In this document: in pieces, positions 2,384 to 10,165 of the stretch
How positions within the stretch are numbered: position 1 is the first letter of the stretch
How the letters are laid out: every line of letters starts with the position of its first letter
From: Escherichia coli
GTDB lineage: Bacteria; Pseudomonadota; Gammaproteobacteria; Enterobacterales; Enterobacteriaceae
Assembly: GCF_001677475.2 (NCBI RefSeq)
Contig: NZ_CP015229.1
Reading direction: 5' to 3' (one strand)
Length of the DNA: 64,000 nt
Program-made: the position numbers and the translations under genes
The notes under the pieces: model-generated
Database searches by the model: none
What the model was told of the DNA's origin: nothing
The model's input: only the letters and a program-made list of their open reading frames with translations

Positions 2384-2612
2384 CTTTCTGCCGTCGCAAA
2401 TCATAAGTCGACGGAATGCAAATTGCCGATTCATTCATTTGTTAGATGAATCGGGTTAACCGGTACGGAAGCCGAATTAGCACGAAACTTTCATGGCAAC
2501 GTTCGGGGCGTGCCGGTTTTTTTTCGGTTACCCGGTCGTAACTAACATCTTCAGCCTCTGGCGGGATGATTGCCGCGCTTCCTGCGGATATAACAAAACG
2601 ATGAGGTTTTAC

Positions 2613-3911
2613 ATGCGTAAAATTAAAGGGTTACGTTGGTATATGATCGCACTGGTGACGCTCGGCACCGTGCTTGGTTACCTGACGCGTAACACTGTGG
2701 CGGCAGCTGCGCCAACTCTGATGGAAGAGTTAAACATCTCCACCCAACAGTATTCCTATATCATCGCAGCGTATTCTGCTGCTTATACGGTCATGCAACC
2801 GGTAGCGGGCTATGTACTGGATGTGCTGGGTACGAAAATCGGTTATGCAATGTTTGCTGTACTGTGGGCCGTGTTCTGTGGTGCAACCGCGCTGGCAGGT
2901 AGCTGGGGCGGCTTGGCTGTTGCTCGTGGTGCGGTCGGTGCCGCGGAAGCAGCGATGATCCCGGCGGGTCTGAAAGCCAGCTCCGAATGGTTCCCGGCGA
3001 AAGAGCGTTCCATCGCAGTAGGCTACTTTAACGTAGGTTCTTCGATTGGTGCGATGATTGCGCCGCCGCTGGTGGTATGGGCAATCGTGATGCACAGCTG
3101 GCAGATGGCATTTATCATCTCCGGTGCATTGAGCTTTATCTGGGCGATGGCATGGCTGATTTTCTATAAACATCCGCGCGACCAGAAGCATCTGACCGAT
3201 GAAGAACGCGACTATATTATTAATGGTCAGGAAGCCCAGCACCAGGTGAGTACGGCGAAGAAAATGTCCGTTGGTCAGATCCTGCGTAACCGTCAGTTCT
3301 GGGGTATCGCGCTGCCGCGTTTCCTGGCTGAACCGGCGTGGGGGACTTTCAACGCGTGGATCCCGCTGTTCATGTTTAAAGTTTACGGCTTTAACCTGAA
3401 AGAGATCGCGATGTTCGCCTGGATGCCGATGCTGTTTGCTGACCTCGGTTGTATCCTCGGTGGTTACCTGCCGCCGCTGTTCCAGCGTTGGTTTGGCGTA
3501 AACCTGATCGTCTCTCGTAAGATGGTCGTAACGCTGGGTGCGGTGCTGATGATTGGCCCAGGTATGATCGGTCTGTTCACCAACCCATATGTAGCGATTA
3601 TGCTGCTGTGTATTGGTGGTTTTGCTCACCAGGCACTGTCTGGCGCACTGATTACGCTCTCTTCTGACGTGTTCGGTCGTAATGAAGTCGCAACGGCAAA
3701 CGGTCTGACCGGGATGTCCGCATGGCTGGCAAGTACGCTGTTTGCGCTGGTTGTTGGTGCTCTGGCTGACACCATCGGCTTCAGCCCGCTGTTCGCAGTG
3801 CTGGCAGTGTTCGACCTGTTAGGCGCGCTGGTTATCTGGACGGTATTGCAGAACAAACCGGCGATTGAGGTGGCGCAGGAAACACATAACGATCCCGCCC
3901 CGCAACATTAA
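2613..3911 (+). CDS. exuT: Hexuronate transporter (MFS), 432 aa
   Basis: ORF 2493..3911; start at MRKIKGLRWYMIALVTLG (ATG 2613); multi-span membrane protein matching ExuT. Confidence 0.92.
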   Translation: MRKIKGLRWYMIALVTLGTVLGYLTRNTVAAAAPTLMEELNISTQQYSYIIAAYSAAYTVMQPVAGYVLDVLGTKIGYAMFAVLWAVFCGATALAGSWGGLAVARGAVGAAEAAMIPAGLKASSEWFPAKERSIAVGYFNVGSSIGAMIAPPLVVWAIVMHSWQMAFIISGALSFIWAMAWLIFYKHPRDQKHLTDEERDYIINGQEAQHQVSTAKKMSVGQILRNRQFWGIALPRFLAEPAWGTFNAWIPLFMFKVYGFNLKEIAMFAWMPMLFADLGCILGGYLPPLFQRWFGVNLIVSRKMVVTLGAVLMIGPGMIGLFTNPYVAIMLLCIGGFAHQALSGALITLSSDVFGRNEVATANGLTGMSAWLASTLFALVVGALADTIGFSPLFAVLAVFDLLGALVIWTVLQNKPAIEVAQETHNDPAPQH

Positions 3912-3934
3912 CGCTTAGCGTGAGTTTTAATGTC

Positions 3935-3965
3935 GAAGCCGCCTGTTCAGGCGGCTTCGTTGTTT
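3935..3965 (+). terminator. Intrinsic terminator after exuT (GC hairpin gaagccgcc/ggcggcttc then T-rich tract)
   Basis: Perfect 9 bp stem with 6 nt loop followed by gttgttt. Confidence 0.7.
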
Positions 3966-3988: not shown

Positions 3989-5074
3989 TTAATTGATGGT
4001 TGGTAGAGATGGAGTAAAAATTACCGATAGTTTCCCCATGTAATACCCGGCCTGTTTATCCATCACGCTAAATTTATCGACCGCCAGGGTTAATGGCGTC
4101 GGCACACACATGACAGCGTAACGAATTCCTGGCAGCACAACCGGACGAACGCGCTTCAGGTTGATGCTGTTCCAGACCATATTTTCATTGTTGCGAACAT
4201 CAATTTGCCCGCCCGTTTCCGGGTTATACATTTTTACCCGATAATCAATGCGTTCTGAGGCATCTGTCGATGTTCCTCCCTGACGATAGATCGAGAAGTC
4301 GCCATCTCTTCGTCCGGCAGCCGGGCGACCTTCATCTTTAAGCTGGATTTCATAACTGATAGCGTTGCCGTTAAAACCATCGTACAGGCACATATCCAGC
4401 GTGGTCAGATCCTGAGCATAGTTACTGCCATTGACGCTCCCCGTCGGGTGTAGATCCAACTGTACCCGTGGCGTGGCGTGGGCAAACTCAGGAAAGAAGA
4501 TATCGATATGGTTGGGATCGAGCGTATTAAGCGTGATATCCGCAACATAATCTGTTCCAGGAGTGGAAAAACGTAATTTAGCAGAACCTTCCCAGACGCC
4601 GCCGATTGGTAATTTTTTCATTTCGGCTTGTTCAAGATACAGGGTTACCGGCTTTGCAGTGGCAAGATGTTGAACATTATCATTACCCTTGCAGTAATAG
4701 CCATTACCATCAGTCAAATTCAGTTGCTTGCTCCATCCCTTGCATGGCCCTTCATCCCAGACTTCTGCGTTCATATAGCCCGTCAGTTTCACAGGCCAAC
4801 GCATACCGCTGCGCTTTTCAGTCAAGTAAATCTGCACTTTTGTCGTGTTTCCAGATGATGTGCAGGTCTGCTGCATATCAGAGAAGTTGCACTGATACCA
4901 TGCCCATGTAGTGTTGTAGTTGTACGCCGGTGGGGCTTCTTTGTTCCAGAAATAGTAATTCGCCCTCCCCGTCGCCAAATCGTAAGTTACATCCGCCGTA
5001 ACATTTTGGGCTGCCTGAACACCCGCAACCGAGCCCCAAAAGCAAAATAGTATGGCAATCAATCGCTTTCTCAT
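3989..5074 (-). CDS. Fimbrial tip/minor adhesin, class 5 (CfaE/CooD-like), 361 aa with signal peptide
   Basis: Size and motifs (KLPIGGVW, DLHPTG, DMCLYDGF, GYYMGKLSVIFTPS) resemble CfaE/CooD as recalled; last gene of a chaperone-pilin-usher-adhesin operon. Confidence 0.8.
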   Translation of the reverse strand: MRKRLIAILFCFWGSVAGVQAAQNVTADVTYDLATGRANYYFWNKEAPPAYNYNTTWAWYQCNFSDMQQTCTSSGNTTKVQIYLTEKRSGMRWPVKLTGYMNAEVWDEGPCKGWSKQLNLTDGNGYYCKGNDNVQHLATAKPVTLYLEQAEMKKLPIGGVWEGSAKLRFSTPGTDYVADITLNTLDPNHIDIFFPEFAHATPRVQLDLHPTGSVNGSNYAQDLTTLDMCLYDGFNGNAISYEIQLKDEGRPAAGRRDGDFSIYRQGGTSTDASERIDYRVKMYNPETGGQIDVRNNENMVWNSINLKRVRPVVLPGIRYAVMCVPTPLTLAVDKFSVMDKQAGYYMGKLSVIFTPSLPTIN

Positions 5075-7755
5075 GGTGCAACCTCCCTTTGCGCCGTTTG
5101 CACACTTTCGCGTAATTTAGGCTGTTTTAACTGCGCCTGAACCTGAATCGACTCTGGCAATTGCGAATAACTCACGACGCTACAAGTCACATCGCCGCTG
5201 TAACGAATGCTGGCGCGTTTCTTCACAACAGTCAGCGGACATTTAAGGAATTCGTGTCCGGAAAGCAGATACAGTTCTTTATCATTGCCGCTAATTTCCA
5301 GCGTAAATCCGCCATCTTCAGCCACCAATAACATGGTGCTGTTCAGACCAATCAGCGGGAATTTCTCTACTGATGCTGGCAATAACAAGCGACCAATATA
5401 GTTGTAGTTAAAGCTGGCAGTGACTTCGCGATAACGTAACTTACCGGGCAGCAACATTAATTCCCGGTTTCCCGCGCCATTGATAATATTGGTTGTTCCC
5501 TGCTGATTGCCCTGGTTGCTGTCCCTGACGTCAACAAAGCCCGACTGGAATCCAGCATAGGGGAACAACACACTGTCACTTTGACCAAGTTGCAGAGTTC
5601 TGCTGCCCGCAACCCGAGCTTCGAATTGCAGATCCTGGCTCTCTTCATCCTGTTCAGTAAATCCTTTTACATCGACTAATACAGCGCCGAGCAGATCATC
5701 TGTTCCACTGGCTCCCAGATTAATTCCGTAACGACTCACCGCCAGTGTGGAACTGTAAGTCCCTGTAAAGGCAGAAAGATGATCATGGTTCTTGCGATCG
5801 TAACTGTCTGATACGGTTCCGTTGAGATTACCGTACTGCCCTTCCCAACGACCATTAACCGCACTGTTTATGGTATCGGTGTTCAGGCCACCGACGGTTA
5901 CGCCAAGTTCTTTATGGCTGAATGAATCATTATAAAAGGTATGCGATAACTGCCATGAAGTTTGGTCGCCATCCTGATCGCTATAGCGATAGTCAGTCGA
6001 AACATTGGTTGAGTGACTGTTATTATTGCTGTCCATCGTTGGTGTATCAGATAACGAAAACGATAAGTACAATCCGTTGTCGTCGTTATCTCCGCCGTTG
6101 TCGTTACGATGGAAAACCCCGACAGAAGTGCTCAAAATCCAGTCACGCATTATAAAAGCGCGAGACGCGCTAAGCTGTACGGTTTCAGAAATACTTTGCG
6201 CAGAAGTCTGGCGAAGATAGTTATTTTCAAAACTCTGCTGTTTGTCCCAGCGTAAGCTGTCGTCGGTGTTATTTTGCGTGCGGGTATAACCCAGCATCAG
6301 GTTCCAGCCGATAAGATTCTGTGAAATCGTAGCGGATATGCTTTCATAACAGCTTAAGGCGTTGTAGCTATCTCTGCTGTCGGTTGTACAAGCATCTCCG
6401 TCGGAGTTGGTACGATAAAAGCCCAGCGTCGGCCATCCCGAATTACTCCAGTTAACCTGCTGCATATCACCTTTGCCGCCATCGTCATTGCGGAACAGGC
6501 TGGCACCTATGGCAAGATTCCCCGCCCCGCCTAAATCCGCCGTCCAGTTATTACCTAACTCGAAAGCATTCACATCATCGGCATTCGCCAGCCCTGCGTA
6601 GAGCTCATATTGTGGATGTAACGGCAGGCGAAAACCCAGTTGATAAGCTGAACTTTCGTCATCGGCAGCCTGGGAGGTGGTTTTACCGGCCTGTAAGAAC
6701 CACTGCGCATTTCCGTCCGTCAGCCCCCCTGTTTTGGTAAAAGGGACAAGTTCAGTGCGGGTGAGTTGGTTGTTCTCATAAACTTTTAACGCCACGCTGT
6801 AGCTGCCTGGCGGAAAGGAACCAGTATCAATAAATTGCGAACCACTATTGAGATAAAACGATCCCAGAAGTTGTTCATTACGATAAGCGTCAACACGAGA
6901 ATTGCGCGAAAGCAGGACCATTACTGGCGTTCCTTGCTGACTCTGCGCCTGGTTTAAATAACTGAGTGTTGACCCGATACGCATTCCATCGATTGCACCG
7001 AGTGGCAGAAAGTTAAAAGTAAAATTCCCGCCTTGTGCATTAAATAGCGTGCGGTTGTCCATTCGCCCCGCCTGCACATAATAACGACGTAAAAAATCAT
7101 AACGATAATAGAGATCGCTGACATCAGCATTATTATCGCTGACATCTTCTGCCTCATAGCCATTGAAATTCCAGTGCCCGCCAATATAACTATTCTCTGT
7201 GACACCCAGCGCACCATTGCCCTGAATGGAGAACGATTGGTAATCATCCTGCACCAGCACGTTAATATCCTGCTGATGAATAAATGCATTAATCGCGTTT
7301 CTGTCTGGATTTAAATATAGCGATTTTGAATTTAACGAGGAACTCCATTGGGGATTCAGAAAGAGGGTGGCGGAACTCTCTTCATCATTAAAAATAATGT
7401 CAACAGAATCGGTATTGAGAAAGCCACATCCTGAATCGGTCTGCGCAAAACCACAAGCCAGTTCACCATGACGCACCAGTGGTTGTGCCAGTCTCGCTTT
7501 TACGGCTTGAGTGATTTTTTGGTCTTTGGTATCCAGCTCCAGCTTATTATATAAACTTGCTGAATCCAGAAATGTTACGGCATCAAGATTAACCATTGCA
7601 TAATATTTACCGAGACTTTTCCCGGCATAATAGACTTCAATATACTCCTGCTGTCCCTGTGCAATAACCTCAAACCCAGCGGGAATTTTAGTTAATGCTG
7701 CCTTTGCCGGGCTGAGACTCGCCAGGATCAAAAGAGCCAGTAATTTTTTATCCAT
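5071..7755 (-). CDS. Fimbrial outer-membrane usher (CooC/CfaC-like), about 894 aa
   Basis: ORF 5071..7809 (912 aa); start preferred at MDKKLLALLILASLSPAKA (signal peptide, ATG at 7755, RBS agggt); large beta-barrel-type protein between pilin and adhesin genes. Confidence 0.85.
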   Translation of the reverse strand: MDKKLLALLILASLSPAKAALTKIPAGFEVIAQGQQEYIEVYYAGKSLGKYYAMVNLDAVTFLDSASLYNKLELDTKDQKITQAVKARLAQPLVRHGELACGFAQTDSGCGFLNTDSVDIIFNDEESSATLFLNPQWSSSLNSKSLYLNPDRNAINAFIHQQDINVLVQDDYQSFSIQGNGALGVTENSYIGGHWNFNGYEAEDVSDNNADVSDLYYRYDFLRRYYVQAGRMDNRTLFNAQGGNFTFNFLPLGAIDGMRIGSTLSYLNQAQSQQGTPVMVLLSRNSRVDAYRNEQLLGSFYLNSGSQFIDTGSFPPGSYSVALKVYENNQLTRTELVPFTKTGGLTDGNAQWFLQAGKTTSQAADDESSAYQLGFRLPLHPQYELYAGLANADDVNAFELGNNWTADLGGAGNLAIGASLFRNDDGGKGDMQQVNWSNSGWPTLGFYRTNSDGDACTTDSRDSYNALSCYESISATISQNLIGWNLMLGYTRTQNNTDDSLRWDKQQSFENNYLRQTSAQSISETVQLSASRAFIMRDWILSTSVGVFHRNDNGGDNDDNGLYLSFSLSDTPTMDSNNNSHSTNVSTDYRYSDQDGDQTSWQLSHTFYNDSFSHKELGVTVGGLNTDTINSAVNGRWEGQYGNLNGTVSDSYDRKNHDHLSAFTGTYSSTLAVSRYGINLGASGTDDLLGAVLVDVKGFTEQDEESQDLQFEARVAGSRTLQLGQSDSVLFPYAGFQSGFVDVRDSNQGNQQGTTNIINGAGNRELMLLPGKLRYREVTASFNYNYIGRLLLPASVEKFPLIGLNSTMLLVAEDGGFTLEISGNDKELYLLSGHEFLKCPLTVVKKRASIRYSGDVTCSVVSYSQLPESIQVQAQLKQPKLRESVQTAQREVAP

Positions 7756-7780
7756 GGCAACCCTGTAATCCATAACAACG

Positions 7781-7820
7781 ACTAAAATAGTTAAAATAAG
7801 GGAGGACAAGCCCCCCCTTT
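7781..7820 (-). terminator. Intra-operon hairpin (GGGGGG/CCUCCC stem, U-rich tail) between the pilin and usher genes; possible attenuator
   Basis: Minus-strand transcript ggggggg-cttgtc-ctccctt followed by auuuuaacuauuuu; position matches pilin/usher attenuators seen in other chaperone-usher operons. Confidence 0.4.
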
Positions 7821-7846
7821 ATTACGTATTAATTCTGTTATCCGGA

Positions 7847-8347
7847 TTAGATATCCTGGGACAGATAGATGCTTACCACACCACGGTAAATACCGGTTTC
7901 CAGTACACCTTTGGTGGTCTGAGCAAACATCAGGTTTTTAGCCAAAGAACCGTTGGTTAAAGCATCGGAAGCAAAAATTTTGGTTGCTTCGAAAGTGGTA
8001 GCGGCATCAGACTTGATTTCAGTACCACCCCAGGTCACAGTCAGCGGAACAGTTTTGCTGCCGTCCAGGTTATGAACCAGTTGCGCAGGGGAAACCAACT
8101 GCATTTTAATGTCTTTAGTAACATCGTTAGACCAAATTTTAGTCATCAACTGATAAGATTGCAGACCCTGACCCGGCAGATATTGCATTTCAACTGCTTT
8201 CGGCAGTGCGCTGTTATCGGTTTGCGTCATATCCAGGGCGGCATCAACGTTAGCTGTTACAGTAATATCTTTTTGTACTGCTAACGCGGAGCCTGCTACA
8301 GAGAATAACGCTGCTACCAGAAGAGATTTTGCAAATGCCTTTTTCAT
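7847..8347 (-). CDS. Major fimbrial subunit, class 5 (CooA/CfaB-like pilin), 166 aa with signal peptide
   Basis: ITVTANVDAALDMTQTDNSALP and C-terminal YRGVVSIYLSQ resemble CooA ISVTASVDPTVDLLQSDGSALP ... YQGLVSIIL as recalled. Confidence 0.85.
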   Translation of the reverse strand: MKKAFAKSLLVAALFSVAGSALAVQKDITVTANVDAALDMTQTDNSALPKAVEMQYLPGQGLQSYQLMTKIWSNDVTKDIKMQLVSPAQLVHNLDGSKTVPLTVTWGGTEIKSDAATTFEATKIFASDALTNGSLAKNLMFAQTTKGVLETGIYRGVVSIYLSQDI

Positions 8348-8376: not shown

Positions 8377-9093
8377 TTAATGGATCGCCAGCTCAAACTC
8401 GCCATTATCCTTAGTGATCCAGTTATTATATTTGACAACGATCTTGTCGTAGCCAGATATGCTTTCAAGATTTATTTCCTGACCAGGGAAGATATTTTTA
8501 TTTACGGTCTGCATCTTACAATTATCTTTGCTATTATTTTTGCAATAAGCGATCGTTAAAAGTTTTAAACGTTGATTCCCTGCATTAAATAATTTTTTGG
8601 CAGGATTTACTTCTAACTTAGCAATAGGTTGTTGGGGTGGAACACTAACAACAATCCCCCAAATCAAGTTAACTGTTAACTGCATAGAGAGATCTTTTTT
8701 ATCTGTGGCAACGTCATCAATACTGGGAACTGCTTCAAATTTAACGCGGTAATTTTTCTCTTTTTGCTCTGGTTCCATTGCGACAAAGCGCACGGTTTTG
8801 CTGCTACCGGCTGGTAAGGCGAATTTGGGTGGCATAACGACCAGATGATTTGCATCACCGGATTTAATCTCAACTTCATTTTCCTGAGGCGTCGATGGAT
8901 TATCTATACGGAATACTGTCGCCTTGATATACTGAACTTCATTACTTTTAGATATTACACGAACGTTGCCTTCACCCTGACTATTAATAGAAACAGCCAT
9001 AGGATAAACAGTCATATTTGACTGTGCAAAAAAAGGAGCGAACACGAATAAAAGCGGCGTAAGCCGTGATAAGAGTTTAATTTTCGCCACCAT
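8377..9093 (-). CDS. Periplasmic fimbrial chaperone, class 5 (CooB/CfaA-like), 238 aa
   Basis: IYPMAVS, KSNEVQYIKATV and YRVKFEAV resemble CooB IYPISKD, KSKEIQYIKIYT and YRVYFEAV as recalled; first gene of the operon. Confidence 0.85.
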   Translation of the reverse strand: MVAKIKLLSRLTPLLFVFAPFFAQSNMTVYPMAVSINSQGEGNVRVISKSNEVQYIKATVFRIDNPSTPQENEVEIKSGDANHLVVMPPKFALPAGSSKTVRFVAMEPEQKEKNYRVKFEAVPSIDDVATDKKDLSMQLTVNLIWGIVVSVPPQQPIAKLEVNPAKKLFNAGNQRLKLLTIAYCKNNSKDNCKMQTVNKNIFPGQEINLESISGYDKIVVKYNNWITKDNGEFELAIH

Positions 9094-9342
9094 ATAGAAT
9101 TGATCTTACAAAATTGTTTCAAAAAAGTTAGTGCATTAGAAATGTAGATTTATTGTAAGTCAATATAAAAAATCATTTTTAGTTAATATTAATTTAAAAA
9201 GCGAAAAATTAAGTTACTGAAACATAGTAATTTTCACAATAGCGACGCTTAATTTTTAGGAATTTATAAATATTCACAATGTTAATTAAATACATTATTT
9301 CAATCACCATATTTATATATGAACAATGGCATACCCATAAAT
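9094..9342 (-). promoter_or_regulatory. Strongly AT-rich leader/promoter region of the fimbrial operon
   Basis: About 250 bp of very low GC with A/T tracts immediately upstream of the chaperone start; exact promoter elements not assigned. Confidence 0.4.
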
Positions 9343-9362
9343 AAAGTGGTATGATAACTTTG
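9343..9362. promoter_or_regulatory. Candidate ExuR operator upstream of exuR (aaagtggtatgataactttg)
   Basis: Matches the 2364..2383 motif at about 16 of 20 positions; sits 27 bp upstream of the exuR start. Confidence 0.45.
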
Positions 9363-9388
9363 TCCGCATTCCATTCCGGGAGACGCAT

Positions 9389-10165
9389 ATGGAAATCTCT
9401 GAACCACGCCGTTTGTACCAACAACTTGCTGCTGACCTGAAAGAGCGCATTGAGCAGGGCGTCTATCTGGTGGGTGATAAACTGCCCGCCGAACGTTTTA
9501 TTGCCGATGAAAAAAACGTCAGCCGAACGGTAGTTCGTGAAGCCATCATCATGCTGGAAGTTGAAGGCTATGTGGAGGTGCGTAAAGGTTCAGGTATTCA
9601 CGTGGTTTCCAACCAGCCGCGCCATCAGCAGGCGGCTGACGATAATATGGAATTTGCCAATTACGGCCCGTTTGAACTGTTACAGGCTCGCCAGCTTATC
9701 GAGAGCAATATTGCCGAGTTTGCCGCAACCCAGGTGACCAAGCAGGACATCATGAAATTGATGGCCATCCAGGAGCAGGCTCGCGGCGAACAATGCTTCC
9801 GCGATTCCGAGTGGGATTTGCAGTTCCACATTCAGGTAGCCCTGGCGACGCAGAACTCCGCCCTGGCGGCTATCGTTGAAAAAATGTGGACCCAACGTAG
9901 CCATAACCCGTACTGGAAAAAACTACACGAACACATTGATGCCCGTACTGTCGATAACTGGTGCGATGACCACGATCAGATCCTCAAGGCGTTAATTCGC
10001 AAAGATCCTCATGCTGCTAAGCTGGCAATGTGGCAGCATCTGGAAAACACCAAAATCATGTTATTTAACGAAACCAGCGACGATTTCGAGTTCAATGCCG
10101 ACCGCTATCTGTTCGCAGAAAACCCGGTAGTGCATCTCGATACGGCCACCAGCGGCAGCAAATGA
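9389..10165 (+). CDS. exuR: Hexuronate regulon repressor ExuR (GntR/FadR family), 258 aa
   Basis: [37 protein letters not shown]...; length matches ExuR. Confidence 0.93.

Follow-up and report, generated by a model that had tools for sequence, protein, structure and literature searches.

The window, as the whole 64-kb stretch of DNA analysed is named here, carries on its minus strand four fimbrial genes in the order chaperone, CS1-type major pilin, TcfC/CooC-type usher and CfaE/CblD-type tip protein, as identified by Pfam, PGAP and tblastn. On the basis of these protein families the locus, extending from 9093 to 3989, is assigned to the alpha-class (class 5, alternate) chaperone-usher operons of the CFA/I, CS1, Cbl and Tcf type. 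Its features are the following:

8377..9093, minus strand: periplasmic chaperone gene, first of the operon (eafA/CfaA/CooB-like); Pfam PapD_N, E 9e-8
7847..8347, minus strand: major pilin gene (CS1-type fimbrial major subunit); Pfam Fimbrial_CS1, E 8e-23, and PGAP annotation of the orthologue
7756..7846, minus strand: pilin-to-usher spacer of 91 nt, defined by the ORF coordinates
5071..7755, minus strand: usher gene (TcfC/CooC/CfaC-like), 894 aa from ATG 7755; Usher_TcfC, E 3e-60, and TcfC, E 2e-19
3989..5074, minus strand: tip adhesin/pilus initiator gene (CfaE/CblD family); Pfam CblD, E 1e-100, and PGAP
3934..3959, no strand assigned: strong palindromic hairpin shared by the distal end of the operon and exuT, which converges on it; dG -20.4

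In E. coli the orthologue of the chaperone gene carries the annotation fimbria/pilus periplasmic chaperone. The usher has tblastn matches to cblC, cfaC, csdC and csuC, and its Pfam match to CooC_C is weak and under the cut-off. The pilin gene terminates with TAA (7849-7847). The chaperone and pilin genes are separated by 29 nt and the tip adhesin gene overlaps the usher stop by 4 nt; the 91-nt spacer between the pilin and usher genes is the sole sizeable intergenic gap of the operon.

The operon is chromosomal and is flanked by exuT (2493-3911, plus strand) and exuR (9389-10165, plus strand). The same operon is found in the same place in about 1,900 of the 5,426 complete E. coli genomes (~35%), and the orthologous E. 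coli loci, which have the same flanking genes, are 87-93% identical in DNA sequence to the window around the hairpin described below. The E. coli W genome paper (Archer et al. 2011, PMC3032704) gave it the name eafABCD; later work (PMC6033998) refers to it as “CS1-like” and credits that name to Wurpel et al. 2013 (PMC3559732). The eafABCD cluster was stated to be without a tip-adhesin gene (PMC3032704), which contrasts with the strong CblD match of the fourth gene (3989-5074) and with the PGAP annotation of its orthologue as a CfaE/CblD tip adhesin. By its sequence, the window originates from a divergent, non-typical Escherichia lineage. Its exuR is 90-96% identical to that of E. coli, and the nearest match of its pilin-to-usher spacer is found in strain E69 (CP089930.1), the same over 150 nt with the exception of one G in a G-run.

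The 295 nt upstream of the chaperone gene (9094-9388) are very AT-rich, with a GC content of 33% in the segment 9000-9499 compared to ~50% in its flanks, and hold one promoter-like match on the minus strand (9323-9294) with an extended -10 TG. No Rns/CfaD-type, CblRST or two-component regulator gene was found linked to the operon, unlike in the ETEC and cbl systems. At its distal end the operon has no terminator of its own and shares the exuT terminator palindrome (3934-3959). The U-tract of this palindrome is present solely on the plus (exuT) side; the minus strand continues ACAUUAAAAC, which has no U-tract.

Hairpin in the Pilin-to-Usher Spacer

The preliminary description of this DNA had placed a GC-rich stem followed by a U-rich stretch between the pilin stop codon (7847) and the usher initiation codon, at 7781-7820. 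Folding with RNAfold and a terminator scan locate both elements there, at the coordinates originally given:

7798..7819, minus strand: terminator-like hairpin; 5' arm 7819-7812 (AAGGGGGG), loop 7811-7806 (GCUUGU), 3' arm 7805-7798 (CCUCCCUU)
7785..7797, minus strand: U-rich tail AUUUUAACUAUUUU, directly 3' of the stem

The hairpin is real, and its structure and position are directly established. The RNA transcribed from the minus strand reads ...UAAUAAAGGGGGGGCUUGUCCUCCCUUAUUUUAACUAUUUUAG... around the hairpin and ...GAUAUCUAA UCCGGAUAACAGAAUUAAUACGUAAUAAAGGGGGGGCUUGUCCUCCCUUAUUUUAACUAUUUUAGUCGUUGUUAUGGAUUACAGGGUUGCC AUG GAU AAA AAA... up to the usher start. RNAfold predicts for 7819-7798 a stable stem of 8 bp, AAGGGGGG/CCUCCCUU, in which 7819-7812 pair with 7805-7798 (five G-C, one G.U and two A-U pairs) and which is closed by a 6-nt loop; its dG is -12.1 kcal/mol alone and -13.1 kcal/mol with short flanks. 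The separate terminator scan calls the same hairpin as a variant with 9 pairs and a 4-nt loop. The structure begins 27 nt past the pilin TAA, on the same strand, and ends 42 nt short of the usher ATG at 7755. The tail, AUUUUAAC, has an interrupted U-tract with 4 U in its first 8 nt; when the count starts after the last G-C pair, taking the two terminal A-U pairs as part of the tail (UUAUUUUA), there are 6 U in 8 nt. The G homopolymer that spans the 5' arm and the loop (7819-7811) counts 7 G in the window against 6 G in E69 (CP089930.1), whose spacer is otherwise identical; this difference changes the loop size only and leaves the stem unaffected, and other alleles also have indels in this run.

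Dinucleotide-preserving shuffles did not set the sequence apart. The z-score was -0.38 for the 71-nt stretch that the preliminary description had put forward for folding, -1.5 to -1.9 for the hairpin's own sequence and -0.5 for the 91-nt spacer, none of them significant. Such shuffles are uninformative for the window's own sequence because they retain its GG and CC dinucleotides. The window was also scanned on both strands (128 kb) with thresholds equal to the hairpin's own values, namely a single stem with dG <= -12, at least 4 U in 8 nt and at least 6 U in 10 nt. Twelve sites pass, and about ten of them, the exuT and exuR terminators among these, directly follow the end of an ORF; the implied chance of ~0.01 per 91-nt spacer is a guide only, the thresholds having been chosen post hoc. 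The element does not correspond to a REP-like repeat or a mobile element, as its 22-mer occurs once in the window even with three mismatches permitted, nor to a known non-coding RNA, the Rfam matches being below threshold (MicX, 18.8 bits against 75; sraA, 21.2 against 56).

Variation among Escherichia Alleles

A stable hairpin is kept in the 11 Escherichia alleles compared. Its dG ranges from -11.8 to -17.8 in the eight that were folded, and in the other three the hairpin was read from the sequence or alignment. The UUUU run that follows the stem is invariant in all 11 while neighbouring positions vary. Substitutions and indels concentrate in the loop, which appears as CUUGU, GUAGU, CUAGU, CAAGU or CUGGU, and in the G-run. 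Changes in the stem are solely of the G.U to A-U or G-C to G.U type, in either direction; at position 7814, for instance, the window has G (G.U pair) and many E. coli alleles have A (A-U pair). Covariation within Escherichia is weak, the observed score being reached by 100 of 500 shuffles. A scan of genome contigs for more divergent orthologues returned just four loci, of Escherichia type.

Three sequences that carry the junction deserve separate mention. In E. coli A10 (NZ_CP195143.1) an IS5 element (296-1503) sits precisely within the hairpin loop, at the equivalent of window positions ~7810-7807. Its target is the CTAG carried by many E. coli alleles, which is duplicated on both sides of the element (…AAAGGGGGGCTAG|GGAAGGTGCG…GCACCTTCC|CTAGCCCTCCTTTATTTT). 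The insertion puts 1.2 kb between the two arms of the hairpin, and the usher and adhesin genes have probably lost their link to the promoter of the operon. In E. coli O158:H23 (NZ_CP076709.1) an intact spacer and hairpin precede an usher gene that is annotated as a pseudogene with an internal stop codon. The Escherichia eaf pilin-usher junction is also borne by SFGN01000125.1, a 5.7-kb contig of a metagenome-assembled genome labelled as Lachnospiraceae; it is the same as the FDAARGOS_1284 allele over the ~150 nt compared and is most likely a binning contaminant.

Initiation Codon of the Usher Gene

The usher ORF can be extended to a TTG codon at 7809-7807, inside the hairpin. The start at ATG 7755, preferred over this longer version in the preliminary description, is upheld by the comparison of alleles: the TTG lies in the loop, every other lineage has TAG (an in-frame stop codon), AAG, TGG or GTC in its place, and the near-identical strain E69 alone retains it. 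PGAP begins the E. coli usher orthologue at the ATG equivalent to 7755, yielding 894 aa. An AGGG/AGGA motif is found 6-9 nt upstream of this ATG, and the predicted product starts with MDKKLLALLILASLSPAKA, a sequence resembling a signal peptide.

The alleles also share a further in-frame ATG, at 7773, that was absent from the preliminary description. The start at 7755 appears more likely, because ATG 7773 is not preceded by a Shine-Dalgarno sequence, because the 15 nt that separate the two ATGs include 5 variable ones, spread over all codon positions, and because PGAP chose the equivalent of 7755. The first 51 nt from ATG 7755 (7755-7705), the putative signal-peptide region, are near-invariant in the 11 alleles, with one synonymous T/C difference in one of them, while the 18 nt just before this ATG are variable and the locus as a whole is about 10% divergent. 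This invariance suggests a constraint at the nucleotide level, for example on translation initiation or RNA structure. The choice between the two ATGs does not affect the main conclusion, since both are downstream of the hairpin.

Homologous Alpha-Class Operons

A tblastn search of plasmids with the usher N-terminus supplied twelve homologous operons (usher identity 31-43%), which were compared together with that of the window. The 13 operons include those of CS1, CS4, CS14, CS19, cbl, Pantoea, Serratia and Rahnella. Under a loose criterion (RNALfold, any imperfect hairpin of at most 45 nt with dG <= -12) the enrichment in the spacers of the 13 operons was just 1.8-fold; imperfect hairpins of this kind are frequent in the operon coding sequence (32 in 5.3 kb). 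This criterion was replaced by one of uninterrupted stems of at least 6 bp with a loop of 3-8 nt and dG <= -12, applied to the sense strand. Such a compact hairpin is present in the pilin-to-usher spacer of 10 of the 13 operons (892 nt in total), compared to 17 in the other 53.9 kb, a 35-fold enrichment. When at least 4 U are required in the next 8 nt there are 9 in the spacers and 1 elsewhere, which corresponds to an enrichment of about 540-fold.

The stems found at this junction are unrelated in sequence. The hairpins of Pantoea deleyi (GACGGGAC/GUCCCGUC followed by U7), B. ambifaria cblA-cblC (GAGCGCGCC/GGCGCGCUC followed by UGUUUUU), CS1 cooA-cooC (CAGAGCAGC/GCUGCUCUG followed by UUUCUGUUUG) and Serratia (with a U5 tail) are textbook terminators. 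Tails are modest in CS4, CS14 and Pantoea JZ29. The CS19 junction has a hairpin without a U-rich tail, the Salmonella tcf junction has only an imperfect hairpin and no U-tract, and two plasmid operons with spacers of 38-42 nt have no junction hairpin. Because of the missing U-rich tails in tcf and CS19 and the missing hairpins in the two plasmid operons, the constant of the family, as far as these sequences indicate, is the hairpin rather than a complete terminator. The placement had been described at the outset as typical of chaperone-usher operons, and the occupation of the same spacer across the alpha-class set bears this out. The spacer enrichment in 13 operons, with stems of unrelated sequence, indicates that a terminator-like hairpin after the major pilin gene is a positional rule of the alpha-class family, of which the hairpin of the window is one instance.

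Function of the Hairpin

The hairpin and its tail very probably act as a conventional terminator within the operon, or as a stabiliser of the mRNA end, and keep pilin in excess of usher. The reading that we favour, with a probability of about 0.6, is that the operon contains an internal element of the intrinsic (Rho-independent) terminator type, made up of hairpin 7819-7798 and its tail. Intrinsic terminators lie shortly after a stop codon and have a GC-rich stem of about 5-14 bp, a loop of 3-8 nt and, immediately behind the stem, a U-rich tract of some 7-9 nt. The 8-bp stem, the 6-nt loop and the position of the element agree with this and its U-tract is borderline, so that by sequence it mostly qualifies. 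The location 3' of the major pilin gene (7847-8347) and 5' of the usher gene (5071-7755) is that expected of a stoichiometry attenuator. Transcription would start upstream of the chaperone gene and a fraction of the RNA polymerases would end transcription at this element, leaving a short chaperone-pilin mRNA whose 3'-terminal stem may also shield it from 3'-to-5' exonucleases. The remaining polymerases would read through into the usher and adhesin genes, and the outcome would be more mRNA for chaperone and pilin than for usher and adhesin. We infer from the sequence both that termination takes place and that it is partial, and propose on the same ground that it sets the protein ratio. Such a ratio would match the demand for chaperone and pilin in large amounts (about 1000 pilins per fimbria) and for usher and tip adhesin at approximately one copy per fimbria.

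Published work provides a frame for this proposal. In fimbrial gene clusters an excess of subunit over biogenesis proteins is maintained by rho-independent stem-loops located 3' of the subunit gene, and the chaperone-first order of tcf was considered unusual, implying that this operon has its own way to ensure enough subunit (PMC3373541). A CFA/I fimbria has about 1000 CfaB per CfaE (PMC4309564). The RNA-seq paper that mentions the CS1-like fimbrial type gives between-group fold changes only (PMC6033998). A consensus scan, which weak or non-sigma-70 promoters may escape, found no sigma-70 match in the spacer (7756-7846), which makes an internal usher promoter less likely. With no promoter-like site between the hairpin and the usher gene, usher synthesis would depend on read-through. 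As the U-tract is interrupted, termination could be weak or even negligible.

The hairpin could instead serve mainly as a 3'-end stabiliser or processing boundary of the mRNA, with little termination and the ratio set through decay; this alternative is just as conventional, but we regard it as improbable as the primary role. After endonuclease cleavage of the polycistronic RNA, or during its decay from the 3' end, the stem would block 3'-to-5' exonucleases, and the chaperone-pilin segment would outlive the usher-adhesin segment, with the same outcome in stoichiometry as termination. Baga et al. reportedly described in 1988 mRNA processing with differential stability for papBA, and Tomich and Mohr are said to have reported in 2004 control of the cbl operon transcript through processing with differential stability. 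The same phenomenon is documented for the sfa and daa fimbrial operons, as cited in PMC12388093. The conservation of the hairpin across a family in which U-rich tails are weak or absent (tcf, CS19) or modest (CS4, CS14, Pantoea JZ29) also speaks for a stabiliser. A pure stabiliser would, however, not need the UUUU that is invariant behind the stem in the 11 alleles in spite of its variable neighbours, and at least 4 U in the next 8 nt are found in 9 of the 10 family hairpins compared to 1 of 17 comparable stems elsewhere. Still less probable is that the inverted repeat has no function and combines, by chance, a G-run with a C-rich run in an AT-rich spacer, an explanation to which we give very little weight. 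Composition-preserving shuffles do fold about equally well and imperfect hairpins of like energy are frequent in coding sequence; chance would nevertheless have to account for the 35-fold to about 540-fold enrichment of compact hairpins of unrelated sequence at the same junction of homologous operons, for a stable fold that survives indels and substitutions in 11 alleles, and for the rarity of comparable sites in the window and their clustering at gene ends.

The whole 91-nt spacer might instead form one long three-tier hairpin that has the hairpin 7819-7798 as its inner part and tip and that acts mainly on translation: the usher ribosome-binding site would be hidden in the read-through RNA and opened only by ribosomes finishing the pilin gene. 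The arms of its outer helix are tentative:

7834..7862, minus strand: tentative 5' arm of the outer helix, with the last pilin codons, the stop codon and 13 nt beyond
7750..7781, minus strand: tentative 3' arm of the outer helix, holding ATG 7773, the Shine-Dalgarno-like GGG 7763-7761 and the usher start 7755-7753

In the 118 nt from 7862 to 7745 the minimum free energy is -32.9 kcal/mol (z -1.9), compared to -36.4 (z -4.0) in an E. coli allele, and the outer pairing joins 7852-7834 to 7781-7760 and 7862-7855 to 7757-7750. RNAalifold recovers the outer helices, in which 97% of cells are paired against 42-61% when the partners are slid, and all variable positions but two keep pairing. The pair map takes in the GGG 7763-7761 and the G of the AUG, and the mean pairing probability of the usher ribosome-binding region is 0.59. 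The alleles are about 90% identical, however, so that pairing is largely inherited. Covariation is not significant, as seen in the 100 of 500 shuffles that match its score, and a single pair, located in the middle helix, is changed on both sides. The Shine-Dalgarno pairing is weak, with two G.U pairs, no similar long-range pairing is found in other alpha-class operons, and the conserved U run is left unexplained. We therefore hold it quite improbable that masking is the main role of the spacer. Masking of the ribosome-binding site could coexist with termination, and a combined arrangement can be tentatively drawn, although the odds are against it: the terminator hairpin would be the tip of a predicted spacer-wide structure of ~110 nt in which the end and stop codon of the pilin gene pair with the Shine-Dalgarno and AUG region of the usher gene. 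Two limits would then act on usher output: partial termination, and a masked ribosome-binding site that is freed only by ribosomes completing the pilin gene.

For the annotation of the locus, the intra-operon terminator-type element accounts for the sole long spacer of the operon, and the usher start is set at 7755. The proposed element predicts that the chaperone-pilin and usher-adhesin segments would behave as separate expression units when this poorly studied locus is analysed or engineered.

Comparison with Known Systems

No description of the eaf-locus hairpin was found among the papers accessible, and a literature search for hairpins of cfaB/cfaC or cooA/cooC gave nothing usable. The eaf hairpin is an expected instance of a long-known device, and the count of 10 in 13 operons, with its 35-fold to about 540-fold enrichment, quantifies a rule that is usually given only verbally. 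All examined alleles of the eafABCD operon of E. coli, the orthologous locus, have both the hairpin and the U run.

The exuT and exuR terminators of the window likewise consist of a GC-rich stem, a short loop and a U-rich stretch just past the stop codon. Compared to them, the spacer hairpin has a weaker stem (-12 versus -16 to -20 kcal/mol) and an interrupted U-tract. It is located between co-transcribed genes, whereas canonical terminators stand at the operon end, and this fits leaky termination.

The closest relatives by position and function are the pilin-usher junction hairpins of CS1, CS4, CS14, CS19 and cbl. The ETEC class 5 operons (CS1 cooA-cooC, CS4 csaB-csaC, CS14, CS19) and Burkholderia cblA-cblC have the same gene order and protein families, and their 60-90 nt spacers hold a compact hairpin with a dG of -14 to -22, usually with a U-rich tail. 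The window differs from them by the unrelated sequence of its stem, by an usher that is 31-43% identical and by a locus that is chromosomal and flanked by exuT and exuR. The U-tracts of cbl, CS1, Pantoea and Serratia are stronger than the one at the window's junction.

In the pap, fim and K99 operons the chaperone gene lies downstream of the subunit hairpin. Classical chaperone-usher operons are generally stated to follow the same logic, with a rho-independent-type stem-loop after the major subunit gene (PMC3373541). Unlike in those operons, the chaperone gene of the window is upstream of the hairpin, so that chaperone and pilin would be boosted together; in alpha-class operons the hairpin sets the chaperone on the high-expression side.
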